Below, in pieces: positions 2,735-30,664 of a stretch of DNA of 64,000 bases. The position numbers and the translations under genes were made by a program. Numbering within the stretch: the first letter of the stretch is position 1; every line of letters starts with the position of its first letter. The notes under the pieces were generated by a model. That model saw nothing but the letters and a program-made list of their open reading frames with translations, was not told where the DNA came from and did no database searches. This DNA is from a virus: the IMG/VR virus record IMGVR_UViG_3300042261_000762, positions 1-64,000 of that record. The stretch is one strand, 5' to 3'.

Positions 2735-3511
2735 ATGGATGACTTAACAAAAGAAATTGCGAAATGGCTTATCCAAAGCTATCCTCTTCTACTTACTATC
2801 GTTGGATTTGTAATTATCTTTCTTTATATAATAAAAGAAGTGAAAATAATATTTTTCATGAAAGGAACTGAAGATGAAACTTTTGGTAAGAAAATATTAA
2901 AATTTCTAATGTTCTGGAGAAATTGGAAAAAAGGAAACACTACAGAACCAAAGAATGTTCATTACACAGACGAAGAAAGAGAAAGAGTCGTGAATAAACT
3001 TTTGATTCATAATTTGTTTATAGCAATAAATAATATGAAAACACAAATTCCATCTATGGAATTCGGTTATCAACGTAAAAGTGAAGTTTTAAGAAGTATA
3101 ATAAAAACTTACATAGAAACAATAGAAAAGTATGCTAATCACGTATTAAAAAGTAATAAATTAGACGAATTAACTACTAATCAACTGAACGAGTTGTTGA
3201 TTGGTGAAATAGATAGAGCTCACTACGAGATTTATAGTAAAATGAAAACAAATCTTGGTGATGCTTTATATCAAAAGATAATAGAGGATCCAGTAAAAGG
3301 ATTTAAGGTTAGAAATAATATATTTAGAGAAGTTTTCGTTAATGGAATACTTTTAATATCTTCACAGGCTATGTCAGTTTATAATTATGATAATTATGAA
3401 AGAGCATCTGAGATATTAACATCTATGTATATTTCTTTACAAGTAATAGTAAGAAATTTCGAAAAAGTGTTTAAGGATTATAACGGTGAATTAGATAAAT
3501 ATTTATTATAA
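2735..3511 (+). CDS. hypothetical protein with N-terminal transmembrane helix
   Basis: Hydrophobic LLLTIVGFVIIFLYII segment. Confidence 0.75.
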   Translation: MDDLTKEIAKWLIQSYPLLLTIVGFVIIFLYIIKEVKIIFFMKGTEDETFGKKILKFLMFWRNWKKGNTTEPKNVHYTDEERERVVNKLLIHNLFIAINNMKTQIPSMEFGYQRKSEVLRSIIKTYIETIEKYANHVLKSNKLDELTTNQLNELLIGEIDRAHYEIYSKMKTNLGDALYQKIIEDPVKGFKVRNNIFREVFVNGILLISSQAMSVYNYDNYERASEILTSMYISLQVIVRNFEKVFKDYNGELDKYLL

Positions 3512-3563
3512 TAAATTTAAACTTTAAAAAAAACAATTCAAAATTATAAGTATAAATCAAATT

Positions 3564-3734
3564 ATGAAATTATACGATAAACTAAAAGAATGTGACGCGG
3601 TAGAAGATTACAAAGACTACGCCGAATTAATATGGATGAAAGCCATAAAAATTAATGGTGTACATGTTGATAATCCAAATCACGAAATCACAGAAAATGA
3701 TAAAGACATTACAGTAGGTATATTAAGCCTTTAA
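3564..3734 (+). CDS. small S4-like RNA-binding protein (56 aa, absent from ORF track)
   Basis: MKLYDKLKECDAVEDYKDYAELIWMKAIKINGVHVDNPNHEITENDKDITVGILSL; IKING..V..P fits the S4 fold pattern. Confidence 0.5.
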   Translation: MKLYDKLKECDAVEDYKDYAELIWMKAIKINGVHVDNPNHEITENDKDITVGILSL

Positions 3735-6449: not shown

Positions 6450-6536
6450 TGGTAGCGTGTATTGGATTCGAACCAATGTCCCTAACGGTTATTAGTGTCC
6501 TTACCCATTGCTGGATGTCCCCTAGACGAACACGCC
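6450..6536 (-). ncRNA. tRNA-like RNA without a normal anticodon loop; encoded CCA
   Basis: Acceptor GGCGTGT/ACACGCT-ACCA, T arm GGTTCGAATCC, enlarged D loop, anticodon arm CTAAT-aacc-GTTAG with a 4-nt loop. Confidence 0.65.
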
Positions 6537-10566: not shown

Positions 10567-11115
10567 ATGAATCAAATTAAAGAAGATATTTTAAGATTGA
10601 GAAATGAAGGAAAATCTTATTCTGAAATCCAGAAAGATTTGAATTGTTCGAAAGGAACTATTTCTTACTATTGTGGCGAAGGTCAAAAAGAAAAGAATAG
10701 GGATAGAACAAGAAAATTGAGAGAAGAAAACATAATGATTAAAAAGATTGATAATTTCAAATCGTTGAGAAATTTTAAAAATATAAAAGAAAGTTTGAGA
10801 AAATTTCAAAAAAGAGATGGAAATGATTACAATAAGAATATAAAAGAAACTTTTAATTGGAGGGATGTTTTAGATAAATTTGGAGAAAATACTTTTTGTT
10901 ACTTATGTGGAGAAGAGGTTAACTTATTTGAAGATACTTATAGTTTCGATCACATAATACCTCAAAGTAGAGGAGGTGATAATAGTTTAGATAATTTGGG
11001 TATCACTATGAAGAAAATAAATGACATGAAAACTGATATGACTCCCGATGAACTAGTGGAAATGTGTATCAAAATCTTAAAATTTAACAATTACAGTGTA
11101 GAAAAACTATTATAG
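10567..11115 (+). CDS. HNH homing endonuclease with N-terminal HTH
   Basis: CYLC...DHIIPQSRGG.N.LDN...N; HTH shared with 28889..29458. Confidence 0.85.
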   Translation: MNQIKEDILRLRNEGKSYSEIQKDLNCSKGTISYYCGEGQKEKNRDRTRKLREENIMIKKIDNFKSLRNFKNIKESLRKFQKRDGNDYNKNIKETFNWRDVLDKFGENTFCYLCGEEVNLFEDTYSFDHIIPQSRGGDNSLDNLGITMKKINDMKTDMTPDELVEMCIKILKFNNYSVEKLL

Positions 11116-13689: not shown

Positions 13690-14409
13690 ATGAAATATCT
13701 TATAGGCATACAACCAACAGGCAAACTCCATATAGGTAACTATCTTGGATGCTTAGCCAAGGGACTTAGACTTCAAAAATCTGGTCACGATGTTACTTTT
13801 TTAATAGCTAATTATCATTCAATGACTACAGGTTCATATACTGATATAACAGAAAAAGAATTAAAAAGATTAGGATGTAAAAATGTAAAACGCCAAACAC
13901 CAGAATATACTGAAAAGTTCTTTGAATTGTGTTGTAAAATGAATATAGGACAGCTTCTTAAAATGCCACAATATAAGGATAAAAAAGAAAAGGTTGAATA
14001 TGATTTAGGATTACTTTTATATCCAGTGCTTATGGCAGCAGATATTATAATAAATGATCCAGATGTTATTATAATAGGAGCAGATCAAGTTGCACACATT
14101 GAATTGACAAATGATATAGTAAAAAGAATAGGAATAGATAAACATTTTGAATATGAATATGGTGATGTAGACAAGATAATGTCTTTAATAGATCCAACCA
14201 TTAAAATGTCAAAATCATCTGGAGAAAAACACGTTCTTTATATATTCGATGAAGATTATGTAGCGAAACTTAAAAAAGCCAATTCCAACGAAGAAGGATT
14301 GAATAATCTAAGAAAAATCGGAGATTACTTCAATGTTGAAAGAAATGATAGTAATTTGAAATATAAATTGGATATAGCGAAAGTTTTAATTGATGAATTT
14401 AATCAATAG
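13690..14409 (+). CDS. trpS: tryptophanyl-tRNA synthetase, compact (239 aa)
   Basis: GIQPTGKLHIGNYLG, YPVLMAADI, GADQ..H.ELT, KIMSL.DP..KMSKS. Confidence 0.92.
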   Translation: MKYLIGIQPTGKLHIGNYLGCLAKGLRLQKSGHDVTFLIANYHSMTTGSYTDITEKELKRLGCKNVKRQTPEYTEKFFELCCKMNIGQLLKMPQYKDKKEKVEYDLGLLLYPVLMAADIIINDPDVIIIGADQVAHIELTNDIVKRIGIDKHFEYEYGDVDKIMSLIDPTIKMSKSSGEKHVLYIFDEDYVAKLKKANSNEEGLNNLRKIGDYFNVERNDSNLKYKLDIAKVLIDEFNQ

Positions 14410-14580: not shown

Positions 14581-15201
14581 ATGGACATAGATAAACAAGT
14601 TAGAGGAACTAGAATTATTCTGGAAGAAGCAAAGGAAAGAAGAATAATTCTTAATAAACTCATAGATATTGCAAATGATTATGGTTTTCAAGAAATCACT
14701 TTACCTAGTTTAGAATTATCTGAAATTTACGTAGATAAAGCGGGTGAAGAAATTCTAAATCAAATGTACACATTTAAAGACAAAGGAGATAGAAATCTAT
14801 GTCTTAGACCAGAAGGAACAGCAACAATTCAATTATTGGCTAATAAATATTGGAAAACGCAAAAAGATATTAAACTTTGGTATTTTGAAAAATGTTGGAG
14901 ATATGAAAGACCACAATCGGGAAGATATAGAGAGTTTTATCAATTTGGTGTTGAATGGTTAAATCCAAGAGAAGATGTAACTCCTACATTGATTGAAATG
15001 GCTAAAAAGATGATAGAAACTAAAACAAATGAATATACTATTTCTGAATCTGTTAAAAGAGGATTATCATATTACACAGGAGGAGTTGGTTTTGAAATTT
15101 CTGTAGATAAATTAGGTGCTCAAAAACAAGTTTGCGGAGGAGGATCATATAAAGAAGGAATAGGATTTGCTTTGGGGTTCGATAGATTAATGTTATGTTA
15201 A
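14581..15201 (+). CDS. hisS: histidyl-tRNA synthetase, catalytic core only (206 aa)
   Basis: MYTFKDKGDRNLCLRPEGTA, RYERPQSGRYREFYQFG, RGLSYYTG, GFALGFDRL; no C-terminal anticodon-binding domain. Confidence 0.88.
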   Translation: MDIDKQVRGTRIILEEAKERRIILNKLIDIANDYGFQEITLPSLELSEIYVDKAGEEILNQMYTFKDKGDRNLCLRPEGTATIQLLANKYWKTQKDIKLWYFEKCWRYERPQSGRYREFYQFGVEWLNPREDVTPTLIEMAKKMIETKTNEYTISESVKRGLSYYTGGVGFEISVDKLGAQKQVCGGGSYKEGIGFALGFDRLMLC

Positions 15202-23588: not shown

Positions 23589-24059
23589 ATGAGCAAGTTA
23601 TTTAGATTTTCTAATTTTAAGGTTAACGAAAACGTTGATGGTTTATATCAGACTATAAAAGATATAATAGAACATTATCAACAGAAAATAGGAGCAAAAG
23701 ATTGGTTTGATTTTGCAGGTAAAGGAAAGTGGTACCATCATTTTAAGAATGATTTATGGTTAAACTTTATAGAAAATAAAGACGAAGCAGCCAAGAATAT
23801 AATAGATACAGCTAGAAGAGCAGGAATTGACATAGATAGTAGAGCAGAAAACCACGAAAGAGGAGAAGATTTAGTAATTCATCAAATAAAAGTATTGTTA
23901 TATAAAAATAGACAAAAAGATATAGATACAACAGTACAAGAAATAGTAAAATTATTAAACAACGATATAAAAGTACAGTGGAGAAGTTCAGCTTTTAATA
24001 CATATAGAAATCAAGAAATGGGCGAAGATAGAGATATAAACCTTGAAGACGCCTATTAA
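23589..24059 (+). CDS. hypothetical protein (CTS-like N-terminus)
   Basis: MSKLFRFSNFKVNE. Confidence 0.7.
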   Translation: MSKLFRFSNFKVNENVDGLYQTIKDIIEHYQQKIGAKDWFDFAGKGKWYHHFKNDLWLNFIENKDEAAKNIIDTARRAGIDIDSRAENHERGEDLVIHQIKVLLYKNRQKDIDTTVQEIVKLLNNDIKVQWRSSAFNTYRNQEMGEDRDINLEDAY

Positions 24060-24126
24060 AATGGAAAAAATACAATATTTTTATAAAATATATAAACAAA
24101 ACAACAATTATACGATATATAAAATT

Positions 24127-24204
24127 ATGAATAACATTTTACATAACAACTTACTGAACCTATTACTCCTCTTGGGGATAATTGGATTGGGTGTGTTATG
24201 CTAA
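24127..24204 (+). CDS. attenuator leader peptide 2 MNNILHNNLLNLLLLLGIIGLGVLC
   Basis: 10 of 25 codons are Leu, using five different Leu codons; antiterminator GGATTGGGT at 24184-24192. Confidence 0.88.
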   Translation: MNNILHNNLLNLLLLLGIIGLGVLC

Positions 24205-24231
24205 ATGAAGAATTTATCGCAGTAAAGCACT

Positions 24232-24266
24232 AACCCAATCCTTAAAAGATTGGGTTTTTTGTTTTT
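24232..24266 (+). terminator. attenuator terminator of array 2
   Basis: AACCCAATC-cttaaaa-GATTGGGTT plus U tract. Confidence 0.88.
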
Positions 24267-24287
24267 AACGATAAAGGAGAAAATGTT

Positions 24288-24542
24288 ATGAAAAGAGAAG
24301 AATTTATAAAATGGTTAGAAAATAGTACCGGTTTTACAAGAGAATATAACGATTGTGACGATACATATTGGGAAGAAGAAGTTGATTATGCTAATATGGT
24401 AAGAGATTATTTGGAAGTTGAAAACGATGATGTAGTATTAAGCTGGGAAGAATGGTATTGGGGTGGAATAAATTATAGAAAAGATAGATACGAATTTGAA
24501 GAGTTCATTGAAAGGTATAAAAATTATACATTGAAATTTTAA
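24288..24542 (+). CDS. acidic, Trp/Tyr-rich hypothetical protein
   Basis: ORF track; first gene after the attenuator. Confidence 0.7.
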   Translation: MKREEFIKWLENSTGFTREYNDCDDTYWEEEVDYANMVRDYLEVENDDVVLSWEEWYWGGINYRKDRYEFEEFIERYKNYTLKF

Positions 24543-24679
24543 AGATTGCTTACAGCAAAATAAAATCGACCACCATTGGGTTGAGTAGTGTAAGTGGTTA
24601 ACACGCCAGGGAGTATCCAGAGAGAACGGGAAACCTGGAGAATGTTGGTTCGAGTCCAACCTTTATAAAAAGCAATCTG
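24543..24679 (+). ncRNA. TTACAGCAA-clamp RNA enclosing tRNA-like D and T arms
   Basis: AGATTGCTT-ACAGCAA ... AAGCAATCT stem; inside are a D arm, a CCAGG/CCTGG stem and T arm GTTGG-ttcgagt-CCAAC. Confidence 0.55.
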
Positions 24680-24685
24680 TTCAAT

Positions 24686-24769
24686 GCGGATATGGCGGAA
24701 TTGGTAGACGCGCCACTTTGAGGGGGTGGTGCCCGCAAGGGCGTAGGGGTTCGAGTCCCCTTATCCGCA
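24686..24769 (+). tRNA. tRNA-Leu(GAG)
   Basis: Canonical, long variable arm. Confidence 0.95.
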
Positions 24770-24776
24770 CAAAAAA

Positions 24777-24850
24777 GGCTCCATAGGAGAATTGGTATAT
24801 CCACTTGACTTAGGATCAAGATTTTGTGGGTTCGAGTCCCACTGGGGCCA
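24777..24850 (+). tRNA. tRNA-Leu(TAG), short variable loop
   Basis: CTTGA-ctTAGga-TCAAG. Confidence 0.9.
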
Positions 24851-24855
24851 CAAAC

Positions 24856-24929
24856 GCCGTTGTGATGGAACTGGCATACATATTGAGCTCAAACCTCAAG
24901 TTTTGTGGGTTCGAATCCCACCTTCGGTA
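24856..24929 (+). tRNA. tRNA-Leu(CAA), short variable loop
   Basis: TTGAG-ctCAAac-CTCAA. Confidence 0.85.
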
Positions 24930-24934
24930 CAAAT

Positions 24935-25007
24935 GACTCTGTAGCCTAACTGGTAGTGGCGTCTGGCTTAAAACCAGAATATCTCGGTTCGATCCCGAGC
25001 AGGGTTA
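24935..25007 (+). tRNA. tRNA-Leu(TAA), short variable loop
   Basis: TCTGG-ctTAAaa-CCAGA. Confidence 0.9.
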
Positions 25008-25013
25008 CTAAAT

Positions 25014-25087
25014 GGCTCTATGGCGTAATTGCGTAGTCGCGCAAGTCTTAGGAACTTGATGTCCCGGTTCGAGTCTGGGTAGGGCCA
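25014..25087 (+). tRNA. tRNA-Leu(TAG), short variable loop
   Basis: CAAGT-ctTAGga-ACTTG. Confidence 0.85.
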
Positions 25088-25098
25088 CTAAAAAATAT

Positions 25099-26658
25099 AT
25101 GAAAATGAAAAAGTTTGTAGTTCCGATGTTTCCTTATCCCAGTGGTAATATTCATATGGGTCATATGAGAAATTACACTATATCTGATGCTATAGCTAGA
25201 TATTGGAGAAATAAAGGATATGAGGTTTGTCACCCTATAGGGTGGGATTCTTTTGGTATGCCAGCGGAAAACGCTGCAATTAAGAATAACATTCATCCAA
25301 AAGAATGGACAGACGCCAATATTAATAATATGAGAGATCAAATGAAGAGAATGAATATGTCATTTGATTGGGATAAAGAAGTCTCTACTTGTGAAATGGA
25401 TTATTGGAAATGGGAACAGAAATTTTTCATAGATGCGTGGGAAAAGGGATTTATAGAGAAGAAAATTGGTATAGTAAATTGGGATCCAGTTGATAAAACT
25501 GTAATGGCTTCCAATCAAGTTATTGACGGAAAAGGTTGGAGATCTGGAGCTAAGATTGAGAAAAAAGAAATGGTTCAATATTATTTCAAAACGACTATGT
25601 TTGCTGATGAAATGTATGAATCAATAAAAGATATTGAAAAAGATTGGCCTGAAATTATCACTAAACAACAGAAACAATTTATTAAGAACGGTATAAGAGA
25701 AGGCGATGAAGTTAGACCTTTTACAGATTGGTGTATTTCACGTCAGAGATATTGGGGAACTCCTATCCCTATGATAAATTGTCATGTTTGCGGAACAATT
25801 CCAAATAAAGATATTCCTGTAGTTCCTCCTTATGACGTTAAATTTGATGGACATGGAAATCCAATGGATAACCATCCAACATGGAAACATATTAAGTGCC
25901 ATAAATGTGGTGGTGATGCTGAGAAAGAGACTGACACAATGGACACTTTTGTTCAGTCAAGTTGGTATTTTATAAGATACATTTCTGAATTTAACGGGGA
26001 TAAATTCAATTGGGAAGAAATAAAAAGATGGTTCCCAATAGACTATTATATTGGTGGAGCTGAACATTCTACTGGGCATATGATATATGCTAGGTTTTTC
26101 TGGAGAATATTTAAGAAGATGGGTTATATTCCTGAAGAAGTTTCAATTGAACCTTTTGGTAAGGTTATAACACAAGGTATGGTAAAGAAGGATGGTAAGA
26201 AGATGTCTAAAAATTTTGGTAATGGTGTGTCGCCTGATGAAATGGTAGATAAATATGGATCTGATGTTGTGAGAATGTATATAATGTTTGCTGGTCCTCC
26301 AGAGCAAGATTTTGAGTGGATAGATGATAACATATCAGGATGTAGTAGATTTATAAAGAAATTTAGACATGGGTTTGAAAGAACAAAAGATATGGTATAT
26401 GTAGAAAATAAAAAGAATGAAGATTGGGCTAGAAATAGAATTGATATTATTCGTAAAAGAACAAATGAAGTTTATGAAAAAAATTACAAATTCAATACTA
26501 TAGTATCTACAGCAATGGAAACTTTTAATGCCATATCTAAAACAACAGATATAAATATATGGAAAGAAGGGTATGAAGTCATAATGAATGCTATTAGTCC
26601 TATATCTCCTGATGTTTGTAGAGAAATAAGAGACGAATTCCAAAATGGAAATAATTGA
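25099..26658 (+). CDS. leuS: leucyl-tRNA synthetase, minimal (519 aa; no CP1 editing domain, no C-terminal domain)
   Basis: MFPYPSG.IHMGH, GWDSFGMPAENAA, DWCISRQRYWG, DTMDTF..SSWY, KMSK. Confidence 0.95.
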   Translation: MKMKKFVVPMFPYPSGNIHMGHMRNYTISDAIARYWRNKGYEVCHPIGWDSFGMPAENAAIKNNIHPKEWTDANINNMRDQMKRMNMSFDWDKEVSTCEMDYWKWEQKFFIDAWEKGFIEKKIGIVNWDPVDKTVMASNQVIDGKGWRSGAKIEKKEMVQYYFKTTMFADEMYESIKDIEKDWPEIITKQQKQFIKNGIREGDEVRPFTDWCISRQRYWGTPIPMINCHVCGTIPNKDIPVVPPYDVKFDGHGNPMDNHPTWKHIKCHKCGGDAEKETDTMDTFVQSSWYFIRYISEFNGDKFNWEEIKRWFPIDYYIGGAEHSTGHMIYARFFWRIFKKMGYIPEEVSIEPFGKVITQGMVKKDGKKMSKNFGNGVSPDEMVDKYGSDVVRMYIMFAGPPEQDFEWIDDNISGCSRFIKKFRHGFERTKDMVYVENKKNEDWARNRIDIIRKRTNEVYEKNYKFNTIVSTAMETFNAISKTTDINIWKEGYEVIMNAISPISPDVCREIRDEFQNGNN

Positions 26659-26733
26659 AACTTTTTCTTTGATATATAATATACGAAACTATGGAGTAAA
26701 ATCCATAAAAATAAAAATAATAGATTAAAGATT

Positions 26734-26922
26734 ATGAATGGAAAAGTAAAATTTTATGATGAAAAAAAGGGATTTGGGTTCATTTTAGAGAATGAAACCG
26801 GCAAAGAATATTTTGCCCACGCAACCGGTTTAATCGACAAGATTACAAAAGATGATGATGTCGAATTTGAGATAATTCAGGGGAAAAAGGGGATGAATGC
26901 TATAGACGTTAAACTAATATAA
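26734..26922 (+). CDS. csp: cold-shock domain protein
   Basis: GKVKFYDEKKGFGFI...FAH. Confidence 0.92.
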   Translation: MNGKVKFYDEKKGFGFILENETGKEYFAHATGLIDKITKDDDVEFEIIQGKKGMNAIDVKLI

Positions 26923-26942
26923 ATCCAGTGAAAAAAAATCCT

Positions 26943-26976
26943 AAAACCCCGACAAAAATCGGGGTTTTGTTTTTTT
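26943..26976 (+). terminator. intrinsic terminator
   Basis: AAAACCCCGA-caaaaa-TCGGGGTTTT plus T run. Confidence 0.85.
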
Positions 26977-27036
26977 AATTCGAATATTAGTCGTATATTT
27001 GTATAGTTAAAAAGTTCATTGAAAAAAAGGATCCAA

Positions 27037-27164
27037 TCCTTGATCGAAGGTCAGCACCGATGGACGCTCCTATCCAGAGCAGCGGTAAGCAGGACTGACA
27101 TGTAGATATAGTGACGTGAGGGCGAAAGAACCCGACTATTCCAACTGGAAAATTGGACAAGGAT
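27037..27164 (+). ncRNA. unidentified structured RNA (about 130 nt)
   Basis: ATCCTTG/CAAGGAT closure, GC-rich interior; lies between promoter+boxA and tRNA-Leu. Confidence 0.45.
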
Positions 27165-27170
27165 ATATAT

Positions 27171-27254
27171 GCCGAGGTGGCGGAACTGGTAGACGCGACG
27201 GACTTAAAATCCGTTGACCGTAAGGTCGTAGGGGTTCGATTCCCCTCCCCGGTA
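27171..27254 (+). tRNA. tRNA-Leu(TAA)
   Basis: Canonical with long variable arm. Confidence 0.95.
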
Positions 27255-27383
27255 CAAGTTAGTTCTTTATTTTATTGATTGTTTTATTCGTGTAGGTCGG
27301 ACTGGACTAGGAGTCGCTACCATAGGTCCACATTGGACATTAGAGAGCCAATGTTATGTCTAAAAACCTAACATGATAAAACT

Positions 27384-27671
27384 ATGAGCAAGAAAGCTAA
27401 ACTTAAGAACAGGGAAAAACGTTTACAGGAAAAACGTTCTCGTAAAGCCGCCAATAAAGCAAGATATGCTGAATTGAGAAGGCTGGGAATCAATAGTAAA
27501 TCTAAAAGATTCCAGAAAAAGAAGAGATCAGTTATTTTAGGGGATCACCCTTTTGGTAACTGTGGAAATATTGGATGTAAAAAGTGTTTTCCTGACCTTT
27601 ATCAAATAGGAGTTGAATATAAGGTGAAAATAAAACAAGTTATATCTCCCATCAAACGATGGGAGATATAA
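27384..27671 (+). CDS. basic protein with CGNIGCKKC zinc-binding motif
   Basis: ORF track. Confidence 0.7.
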   Translation: MSKKAKLKNREKRLQEKRSRKAANKARYAELRRLGINSKSKRFQKKKRSVILGDHPFGNCGNIGCKKCFPDLYQIGVEYKVKIKQVISPIKRWEI

Positions 27672-27803
27672 TTTTCAAAAAAAGTTTGAAATAATTTTTT
27701 TAATAAGCAAACTTTTAGTAATTTTGTCGTATAAATAATGAGAGTAAAATCTCAAAATGGAAAAAATTGACATTTTTGATTAAATATATAAGGAAGTAAG
27801 AAT

Positions 27804-28081: not shown

Positions 28082-28462
28082 ATGAAATTAAAAATGGAAA
28101 ATATAAAAGATTTCGCCGAAAAATTAGCAAATCTTACCGTATTAGAATGTTATCAATTGGCGAAGATAATGAAGGAACAATATGGTATAGAACCACAAAC
28201 AAAAGTTCTGGGAGTAAATATTTCTCCTGTTCCTATAAAGGTTGAAAAAACAAATTTTGATGTGATATTAAAATCTGTTGGAACAAGTAATAAATTAACA
28301 CTTGTTAAAACTTTGAAAGAAATGATGGGAAATAGTTTAATGGAAGCAAAAACATTAGTTGATAACGCTCCAAGCAAACTTAAGGAAAATGTGGGTAAAG
28401 AAGAAGCAACCGCACTTGAAGCTTCTCTAAAAGAAATAGGTGCAGAAATAGAAGTTCTTTGA
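28082..28462 (+). CDS. rplL: ribosomal protein bL12 (L7/L12)
   Basis: LTVLE...L...MKEQYGI, EKTNFDVILK, LMEAKTLVDNAP..LKE.V.KEEA..L...L.E.GAEIE. Confidence 0.93.
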   Translation: MKLKMENIKDFAEKLANLTVLECYQLAKIMKEQYGIEPQTKVLGVNISPVPIKVEKTNFDVILKSVGTSNKLTLVKTLKEMMGNSLMEAKTLVDNAPSKLKENVGKEEATALEASLKEIGAEIEVL

Positions 28463-28888: not shown

Positions 28889-29458
28889 ATGGTTAAATAT
28901 AAAGATGATATATTAAGATTGCGTGAAAGTGGTCTTTCTTATAATGAAATATCTAAAGAAATAGGATGTTCAAAAGCTTTAATATCGTATCATTGTAAAA
29001 GATATTCTCTCAGTGATATAGGTTTAAGTAATACTAATATAAATGAAAAAGAAAATGAAATAAAAGAGTATTATAAAGATCATTCCAAAAAAGAAACAGC
29101 AGATTTTTTCAAAATATCTGAATCTTCAGTTATTAGGTACTCTGATAAAAAAAGAATAATATTGGATGATAATGAAAGAAAAAAAAGAAATTACATTAGA
29201 GTTTCTAACTTTAGGCAAAGATTAAAAGAAAGAGCAATAGAATATAAAGGCGGAAAATGTGAAATATGTGGATATGATAAATGTAAAAGATCATTAGATT
29301 TTCACCATAGAGATCCAAATGAAAAAGATTTTGGGATAGGGCATTCTAAAGTTCTTAATTGGGATAAAATCAAAAAAGAATTAGATAAATGCGATCTTGT
29401 ATGTAGAAATTGTCACGGTGAAATTCACGATGAATGGGATAAAAATAGGGGTGTGTAG
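28889..29458 (+). CDS. HNH homing endonuclease with N-terminal HTH
   Basis: CEICGY...LDFHHRDP...CDLVCRNCHGEIH; its stop codon lies inside the following tRNA-Ile. Confidence 0.88.
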   Translation: MVKYKDDILRLRESGLSYNEISKEIGCSKALISYHCKRYSLSDIGLSNTNINEKENEIKEYYKDHSKKETADFFKISESSVIRYSDKKRIILDDNERKKRNYIRVSNFRQRLKERAIEYKGGKCEICGYDKCKRSLDFHHRDPNEKDFGIGHSKVLNWDKIKKELDKCDLVCRNCHGEIHDEWDKNRGV

Positions 29459-29747: not shown

Positions 29748-30664
29748 GACTTTGTTTGGGAAGTTTCTCACCTTCGGGTGGGTAAAGAATAATACATCGC
29801 AAGGTGTAAAAGAGAGGGATGGTCACATACCTCTACCACAATCCTTCGGGAAAGTGGCTCAACCAAACAAGCATCGTCCTACCGTAGCCAACTACGGTCT
29901 TCGATCACCAGTCGGAGATAGGATGTAAGAACGGAACTGGTCCTTTGGAAAGGATAAGTGAGGTAAGCCCCCAGCCGCAAGGTTGGGTAAGGAGCCTCAC
30001 TAATTAGGGAGTGACGCCCCGCCGCCAGTTGGTCAACCGTTCGTTGTCGGAAGGGATAAGGTGTAGTTAATCTGTTCGAGCATACCAACGCAAGGGCTAA
30101 TTAACAGTTCAATAGGTGAAAGGTTTTGAAACTGTAAAAGGGGAATGAACCTGGAGTCTAGAAGAATCGCACAGTAAGGCTAGTAACCTGAAACGTATGT
30201 GTGTGTAGTGCATTTTGTACCTCAAAAGGGTATAGACCACATGAGTGGGCACCACGCGGTGACAAACAGCAAATTTGCTCAGCTGGTAGAGCAATTCTCT
30301 CTTAAAGAATAGGTCGTTGGTTCAAATCCAACATTTGTTTAAAGGAAAGTCCCACTCAACGGTAAGCTGAAAGACGTTTAATTCTTGGCACCGCAAGGTG
30401 AACCAAGAACTCGGAAGGTCCCAAGCTGGAAGAGTTTAGTTGAAAGATGCACCTAATGGTTTAGCGACCATGAACTGCTCGCAAGGCAGGGGGTAATCAG
30501 ATAGCTGAATAGGTTTATCGGTAAAAGTTGAGCCACCAACTCAAAAAGGGCAACGTTGTCGGTAAACAGTCTTGGTGACTGTGGACAAGTTGAGAACCTC
30601 AGAATGGGAATTTTGAGGATAATGCAACAAAGGTATCGACGTCAAGGATGTAGTCTCAGTCCTT
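29748..30664 (+). ncRNA. GOLLD-like giant non-coding RNA containing a tRNA
   Basis: About 900-nt GC-rich stretch with no credible ORF, many GCAA/TTCG-capped hairpins, terminal AAGGA-TGTAGTCTCAG-TCCTT, inside a tRNA array with an embedded tRNA as described for GOLLD. Confidence 0.7.
30268..30340 (+). tRNA. tRNA-Lys(CTT) embedded in the GOLLD-like RNA
   Basis: ATTCT-ctCTTaa-AGAAT; flanked by the GAGTGGG/CCCACTC stem. Confidence 0.8.

Follow-up and report, generated by a model that had tools for sequence, protein, structure and literature searches.

A putative leucine-specific leader-peptide attenuator ahead of tRNA-Leu genes and a short leucyl-tRNA synthetase in a giant lake phage

We analyzed a stretch of viral DNA of 64,000 nucleotides (nt) from IMG/VR record IMGVR_UViG_3300042261_000762 (positions 1 to 64,000; hereafter the window), which derives from a giant lake phage. 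The contig is 104 kb long (30% GC); the window covers its first 64 kb and contains 40 tRNA genes. Four short leader units lie ahead of tRNA arrays in it, and the second of these, Leader 2, is the subject of this report. Its promoter-like box is followed by a short leader open reading frame (ORF) rich in leucine codons, by an intrinsic terminator and, further downstream, by five tRNA-Leu genes and a short leucyl-tRNA synthetase (LeuRS). A first-pass annotation of the sequence had placed the leader core, the terminator, the tRNA-Leu array and the synthetase here, and all four are present within the range it gave. It had also described the whole as an attenuator driving the tRNA-Leu genes and LeuRS; the linkage stands, but an 84-codon ORF and a tRNA-like element come between the terminator and the tRNAs. 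The features are listed in Table 1.

Table 1. Features of the Leader 2 unit, with positions in the window
Feature	Start	End	Strand	Description
Promoter-like box	24060	24095	+	AATGGAAAAAAT...TTTTT...AATATATAA
Leader ORF	24127	24204	+	ATG at 24127, TAA at 24202-24204; 25 codons plus stop; product MNNILHNNLLNLLLLLGIIGLGVLC
Control-codon run (segment 1)	24151	24174	+	TTA CTG AAC CTA TTA CTC CTC TTG
Segment 2 (antiterminator 5' strand)	24184	24197	+	GGATTGGGT GTGTT; within the leader ORF
Segment 3	24226	24241	+	AGCAC-TA-ACCCAATCC; partner of segment 2 or of segment 4
Intrinsic terminator	24232	24266	+	AACCCAATC / CTTAAAA / GATTGGGTT, then TTTTGTTTTT; stem 24232-24256, 9 pairs, 4 GC
84-codon ORF	24288	24542	+	AAGGAG ribosome-binding site; no family match; absent from relatives' units
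tRNA-like element	24544	24679	+	Core 24579-24668; Rfam tRNA 35.6 bits; closing stem AGATTGCTT/AAGCAATCT
Five tRNA-Leu genes	24686	25088	+	GAG (85 nt), TAG (75 nt), CAA (75 nt), TAA (74 nt), TAG (75 nt)
Short leucyl-tRNA synthetase	25099	26658	+	519 amino acids; TIGR00396 570.5 bits, cutoff 548.4
Cold-shock-domain protein	26734	26922	+	PF00313, 7.7e-15; last gene ahead of the likely operon-end terminator
Strong bidirectional terminator	26942	26969	.	11 pairs

Leucine accounts for 10 of the 24 post-start codons of Leader 2, against a background of 7.4% in the long ORFs of the window (binomial p=3.5e-6), with leucine positions at codon 5 (24139-24141), upstream of the run, and in the run itself at codons 9-16. 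Codons read by the other three tRNA arrays of the window show no enrichment in Leader 2 (p 0.5 or higher), and the enrichment is absent when the window leaders are read in a frame shifted by one. A frame control over 31 leader units gives the same picture: the fraction of cognate codons is 0.30 in frame but only 0.11 and 0.12 in the other two frames, and 0.13 when the arrays of other units are used for comparison. Because the out-of-frame controls lack the enrichment, the match between codons and array is confined to the frame that runs from ATG to stop. The anticodons of the downstream tRNA-Leu genes (GAG, TAG, CAA, TAA and TAG) read all leucine codons of Leader 2 under standard wobble rules. 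The description of this unit as the single-amino-acid version of the system holds, as Leader 2 is monovalent and enriched only for its own array.

The leader region carries the putative elements of an RNA switch. Segment 2 begins 9 nt past the leucine run and ends 4 nt ahead of the stop codon, and its first part, GGATTGGGT (24184-24192), is the perfect complement of ACCCAATCC (24233-24241) in the 5' arm of the terminator. This alternative partner of the terminator arm had been predicted, and the duplex is much more stable than expected by chance (folding free energy, dG, -16.3; z=-5.3; equaled by 0 of 200 shuffles). Of the two nested stems proposed to extend it, GTGTT (24193-24197) with AGCAC (24226-24230) pairs with one G.U and is included in the minimum free energy fold, whereas TAAAT/ATTTA is absent and UGCU/AGUA and UGA/UCG are found instead. 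Three hairpins are predicted: the 1:2 hairpin between the leucine run and segment 2, formed in the free RNA (dG -14.3 kcal/mol), the 2:3 antiterminator between 24184-24197 and 24226-24241 (dG -22.5 kcal/mol), and the 3:4 terminator (dG -11.2 kcal/mol). Antiterminator and terminator are mutually exclusive, as both need segment 3. The full Leader 2 folds much better than its shuffled versions (z=-4.6), and its energetics are the most favorable among the units that we folded.

We then folded the leader with a ribosome footprint masked, spanning -18 to +12 nt relative to the first nucleotide of the A site, and moved it codon by codon. With the ribosome at codons 2-15 the antiterminator is the minimum-energy fold; at codon 16 or at the stop codon it is the terminator, and the RNA without a ribosome folds into the 1:2 hairpin plus the terminator. 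The zone allowing antitermination in Leader 2 stops at the last leucine codon of the run. In the folding model, the geometry is therefore that of a switch: a ribosome stalled on the control codons leaves segment 2 free, and one at the stop codon covers it.

Terminator and antiterminator alternatives, together with a synthetase and tRNAs as the typical cargo, are also found with T-boxes, and a sensor of this type would work without translation, the leucine codons of the leader pairing with the anticodons of uncharged tRNA-Leu and stabilizing the antiterminator. We hold this to be very improbable. The cognate codons lie in one frame between ATG and stop, there are many of them instead of a single specifier, and the stop codon keeps its place relative to segment 2. 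Over positions 23900-27800 the T-box covariance model (specifier loop, T-box sequence) finds no match, nor does any other cis-regulatory family, even at E<=1. The Rfam leader families (Leu, His, Thr, Trp and similar) also have no match in this interval, at the gathering score or at E<=1; judging from its sequence, Leader 2 would work like the known leader families yet is not a member of them.

The same layout of the leucine unit is found in four diverged lineages: the window, L001/L121 (L001 being LR756501), L105, and L120/L122. Searches based on LeuRS returned one viral and two metagenome relatives only, and four lineages in total are too few for building a covariance model. Gene order was checked in three lineages (the window, L001/L121 and L120/L122), and in each the tRNA-Leu array comes after the leader, with the short LeuRS behind it. 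The orthologous leader peptide is MNNILHINLLNSLCLLGIKLIG in L001 and L121, MNNILHTNLLNLLDLLGYNWIG in L105, where it heads four tRNA-Leu genes, and MKNNINTLVLLLNNLLLQSNRTGRVIQMC in L120 and L122, where it heads seven, including some with AAG and CAG anticodons. Five of the six leucine codons are present in Leader 2, as the first-pass annotation had emphasized, and the relatives go further: each of the three other lineages places all six within seven leucine positions (P ~0.003 each under the codon usage of the window, in which 2% of leucine codons are CTG and 4% are CTC). One or two asparagine codons are kept within the leucine run (LLNLL, LLLNNLLL) in the window (24157-24159), L001, L105 and L120. 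Leaders of all types mostly start with MNN or MKN, and the leucine array has no tRNA-Asn.

The 1:2, 2:3 and 3:4 hairpins are predicted in all four lineages, with the antiterminator stabler than the terminator in each, a dG of -13.3 to -14.5 for the 1:2 hairpin, and a distance of 9-10 nt between the last leucine codon of the run and segment 2. The underlying sequences differ. Segment 2, terminator 5' arm and 3' arm read GGATTGGGT, ACCCAATCC and GATTGGGTT in the window and L105; TGATTGGGT, ACCCAATCA and TGATTGGGT in L001 and L121; and GACTGGG, CCCAGTC and GACTGGGGG in L120 and L122. Compensatory changes across lineages thus affect all three pairing segments. We list these changes explicitly, as the MAFFT alignment left the terminator arms of the four leaders out of register.

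The orthologous peptides keep the leucine run and the tail encoded by segment 2, while the remainder is free to differ. This bears on a different explanation of the ORF, which the first-pass annotation had named as the finding that would overturn its reading: the ORF could encode a hydrophobic micro-protein, such as a membrane peptide, with the terminator merely ending a small transcript. The window peptide does have a 17-residue hydrophobic tail, LLNLLLLLGIIGLGVLC. Its relatives, however, carry D, K, Q, S, N and R where the window peptide is hydrophobic, and because these polar and charged residues fall within that very stretch, the micro-protein is disfavored: what the orthologues preserve is the leucine run and the segment 2 tail, not a hydrophobic helix, and the three peptides given above share no hydrophobic stretch of transmembrane length. 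Leaders of the same architecture in sister units are polar, for example SKHSKHSSFSSKW and NMIQEQMQQ. A micro-protein would also leave the segment complementary to the terminator arm unexplained, and we regard it as the least probable of the explanations discussed here, close to negligible.

Leader 2 is not an isolated element. The exact 12-mer of its promoter-like box recurs at every leader unit in the window (10143, 24060, 27756 and 45614), and a fifth exact copy (61051) lies within a coding region without a leader. A looser form, GAAAAAA-N7-TTT-N6-A[AT]TATATA, occurs four times in the 104-kb contig, every time ahead of a leader. A box of the form (A/G)GAAAAAA-N7-TTTT-N5-AATATATAA is widespread in a large clade of AT-rich phages and does not fit sigma-70 spacing; a scan for sigma-70 promoters was uninformative, with 52 sites against 50 expected. 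We infer that the box acts as a promoter. Downstream of it, each window unit carries a short ORF along with a segment that complements the arm of the terminator; the terminator itself and a tRNA array complete the unit. Like Leader 2, the other leaders are enriched for codons of their own arrays: 16/30 in Leader 1 at the amino-acid level (p=4e-4; by codon 9/30, p=0.1), 14/21 in Leader 3 (p=1e-3) and 12/25 in Leader 4 (p=5e-4). No leader of the four matches any tRNA array but its own.

Scanning the viral contigs in IMG/VR for the box yielded >118 loci (L002-L119). For about 30 boxes a tRNA array lies no more than 1.5 kb away, and each of these has a short ORF that mirrors the composition of the array; leader and array types include Leu, S/K/H/F/W, N/D/C/I/Y/K, E/M/Q/I, T/A/P/G/V/R and others. 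Over 27 units with many different sequences, segment 2 is complementary to the terminator arm with a mean z of -3.4. A strong terminator is found <300 nt from the box in 20 of 28 boxes with a tRNA array, compared with 3 of 69 without one, and among these three array-less boxes one resembles a further leader. At L086 (+ strand, from 11739) a leader-like unit, MYRNLYIECINEMNNIDDESKLTG, has a TGACTGG that pairs with a terminator, and no tRNA is detected within 1.5 kb; the unit either has an array that was missed or is an attenuator with other cargo. Synthetases are sorted by leader type as well: the Leu leader has LeuRS downstream, and the S/K/H/F/W array includes TrpRS-like and HisRS-like genes. 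The latter two, a TrpRS/TyrRS-class ORF (13690-14409, 239 amino acids) and a HisRS-like ORF (14581-15201, 206 amino acids), are far below normal synthetase length. Judged by these shared sequence features, Leader 2 is a member of a family, ~27 strong in contigs of related phages, in which a codon-matched leader and its terminator precede a tRNA array.

Several points weigh against reading Leader 2 as a regulatory switch. Equilibrium folding with the complete terminator shows switching in Leader 2 and in only a handful of further units; most sister units favor the terminator for any ribosome position. Because the terminator wins at equilibrium there, the switch must be kinetic, and kinetics are beyond what folding can show. 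In place of equilibrium folding we used a co-transcriptional proxy, in which transcripts end ahead of the 3' arm, and keep the equilibrium result as a caveat. Under this proxy the stall zone that permits antitermination ends with the run of cognate codons (odds ratio 3.7, p=4e-15). Pooled p-values such as this one are too optimistic, because the units of relatives are partly orthologous, and the footprint size is assumed from standard toeprint distances. Five leucine codon types among ten leucines are not unusual when Leader 2 is taken alone (P=0.2), and its five asparagine codons have no counterpart in the tRNA-Leu array. Leader 2 lacks a Shine-Dalgarno sequence, as would be expected if the host is of Bacteroidota type. 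Finally, the 84-codon ORF could carry its own, unrecognized promoter.

Two of these points would also suit a constitutive or leaky terminator or insulator: the prevalence of the terminator at equilibrium in most sister units, and the 84-codon ORF, which has its own ribosome-binding site and separates the terminator from the tRNAs in the window. In that case the leader ORF would not be a specific sensor, and the genes would be driven by another promoter, by fixed read-through or by a general translation response. A transcription stop ~170 nt past the promoter, however, makes little sense unless it is regulated, and there is no further promoter box between the Leader 2 terminator and the tRNAs. 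In the units of relatives the terminator directly adjoins the RNA genes. A constitutive terminator also fails to account for the fit of each window leader to its own array only, and for the preservation, in four lineages, of the leucine run with its reading frame and its distance from segment 2, and of the covariation of segments 2, 3 and 4. We consider such a terminator unlikely.

Taken together, the sequence features and modeled folds make it quite probable that Leader 2 controls transcription as a ribosome-mediated, leader-peptide attenuator with specificity for leucine decoding. The leu-type reading of the first-pass annotation is supported by computation only, through codon enrichment, folding, covariation, linkage and the sister units. 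The phage would then probably produce leucine-decoding parts of its own only while translation of leucine codons is slow. In the proposed mechanism, transcription would start at the phage promoter box, and a ribosome would then translate the 25-codon leader. When any charged tRNA-Leu isoacceptor is scarce, the ribosome would stall in the leucine codons (codons 5, 9-16) and cover segment 1, leaving segment 2 free to pair with 24226-24241 before the 3' arm of the terminator exists. Transcription would read through into the 84-codon ORF, the tRNA-like element, the five tRNA-Leu genes, LeuRS and the cold-shock protein. When leucine decoding is fast, the ribosome would reach the stop codon and cover segment 2, the terminator stem at 24232-24256 would form, and transcription would end at ~24257-24266. 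Should the leader not be translated at all, segment 1 would pair with segment 2, and the terminator would form too. As tRNA-Leu and LeuRS would relieve the stall, the unit would constitute a negative-feedback supply circuit for leucine decoding in infection. The elements, with their predicted energetics, geometry, covariation, conservation and specificity, are what the analysis shows; translation of the leader, coupling of translation to transcription, a response to decoding speed and co-transcription up to 26969 are inferred from sequence and folding.

The region between the terminator and the tRNAs varies among copies of the unit. In a related contig from the same sample, the 427 nt between the terminator and the tRNA array (24265-24693 in the window) are swapped for 294 unrelated letters. 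Because unrelated letters occupy this place, the segment with the 84-codon ORF is a variable insertion site. The tRNA-like element that follows the ORF is conserved in L001 (3001-3150) and L121 (about 3480-3620); ARAGORN calls it only with the intron option, as a doubtful Ser(gga) with a 16-nt intron.

All five tRNA-Leu genes have A73, and the long variable arm is found only in the first (GAG). In the other four (24777-25088), which are 74-75 nt long, a variable loop of 5 nt replaces the typical long arm; in L001, the TAG and CAA tRNA-Leu genes in the corresponding places keep long arms. The synthetase scores as a bacterial-type LeuRS, above the TIGR00396 equivalog cutoff, with LeuRS as its best PDB matches (5e-136) and only the class I core in Pfam, lacking both the CP1 editing domain and the C-terminal domain. 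It aligns in a single stretch only to 3ziu, a CP1-less chain of 637 amino acids. From the sequences, short-arm tRNA-Leu and reduced LeuRS may be a matched minimal pair. The bidirectional terminator at 26942-26969 is the likely end of the transcription unit. Beyond it lies a sixth tRNA-Leu(TAA) gene (27171-27255), flanked by GC-richer non-coding segments (27020-27170 and 27260-27380) that have no Rfam match at E<=1.

The nearest database relative of the window is LR756501, an unannotated genome of an uncultured phage (735,411 bp), with ~82% identity across the tRNA-Leu/LeuRS stretch. A study of huge phages assigned those >634 kb to the Mahaphage clade, with hosts predicted to be Bacteroidetes (PMC7162821). 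The leucine-unit stretch is present in freshwater metagenomes of two studies. The second, independent study holds one contig identical to it with zero differences, and because of this difference-free copy the stretch is not an assembly artefact. No RNA run is listed as containing the stretch, and the two RNA runs from the study it comes from have next to none of its words.

The window also holds a GOLLD RNA, a gene for ribosomal protein L7/L12 and several synthetase genes. The GOLLD RNA (163 bits; 30199-30662) lies within tRNA array 3 and has a tRNA-Lys (30268-30340) embedded in it, and the phage-encoded L7/L12 protein (28082-28462) is situated between array 3 and the terminator of Leader 3. 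At 6450-6536 on the - strand, ARAGORN reports a tRNA of no assigned type whose anticodon has four bases (atgg). ORFs resembling homing endonucleases (HNH/HTH, GIY-YIG) are scattered through the tRNA arrays (10567-11115 and 28889-29458 in the window; from ~3738 in L001).

The closest mechanistic parallel is leuL, the leader of the enterobacterial leucine operon, in which a short leucine-rich ORF, mutually exclusive 1:2, 2:3 and 3:4 hairpins and a terminator precede the regulated genes. Leader 2 has a leucine-run ORF, three exclusive hairpins and a terminator, and a stall at leucine is predicted to lead to read-through. The two differ in cargo, which is biosynthetic enzymes for leuL and tRNA-Leu genes with LeuRS for Leader 2, and in codon choice: leuL repeats one or two codons, whereas the phage-encoded leader samples all isoacceptors through five or six codon types. 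In Escherichia coli, the synthetase operon pheST is under attenuation by the pheM leader peptide. It shares with Leader 2 a synthetase under a leader rich in codons of its own amino acid, and feedback on the supply of charged tRNA, but the Leader 2 operon starts with tRNA genes, is viral, and is one of several parallel units for different amino-acid groups. The ilvGMEDA and thr leaders are multivalent attenuators, and in this they resemble the sister Leaders 1, 3 and 4, which combine codons of several amino acids; Leader 2 is monovalent, and the codon mixes of its sisters mirror tRNA arrays, not a branched biosynthetic pathway. T-box riboswitches similarly induce synthetases at low tRNA charging through a terminator/antiterminator switch, but Leader 2 has no T-box fold or motif, and the sensing proposed here is by the translating ribosome.

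A supernumerary tRNA array that is turned on when translation is impaired is known from Anabaena PCC 7120, where the trn operon is silent and induced by translational stress (PMC8421152, PMC10272220). This array is controlled by a protein repressor, TrcR, and attenuation, a leader peptide or a terminator are unmentioned in its description (PMC8421152, PMC10272220), in contrast to the leader-peptide attenuation proposed for Leader 2. Among published cases of an inducible, supernumerary tRNA array it comes closest. We found no published description in the literature of leader-peptide attenuation of tRNA genes, and the paper on huge phages makes no mention of attenuators, leaders or terminators (PMC7162821). 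Compared with known attenuators, the unusual aspects of Leader 2 are its cargo of tRNA genes plus a synthetase, and its owner, a giant phage.

Phage tRNA genes are usually viewed as constitutive, either patching codon usage or replacing tRNAs destroyed by host defenses, and to our knowledge essentially nothing is known about their regulation. Being monovalent and having the most favorable predicted energetics, the leucine unit is the simplest member of the family to test, and it is a candidate for a small, portable "codon-speed" sensor. More tentatively, and with the balance of probability still against it, the unit may be one channel of a phage surveillance of the tRNA pool, in which each amino-acid-sorted array would be inducible by a codon-matched leader once the corresponding tRNAs of the host have been depleted, left uncharged or cut, as by anticodon-nuclease defenses; the leucine cassette, with its short-arm tRNA-Leu and editing-less LeuRS, would then be a self-contained decoding module that could outlast a disabled host leucine system. 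If the attenuator reading of Leader 2 is true, the phage would possess a direct, isoacceptor-resolved sensor of decoding capacity with negative feedback built in, and a textbook mechanism would reach beyond amino-acid biosynthesis to the translation apparatus, and to viruses.

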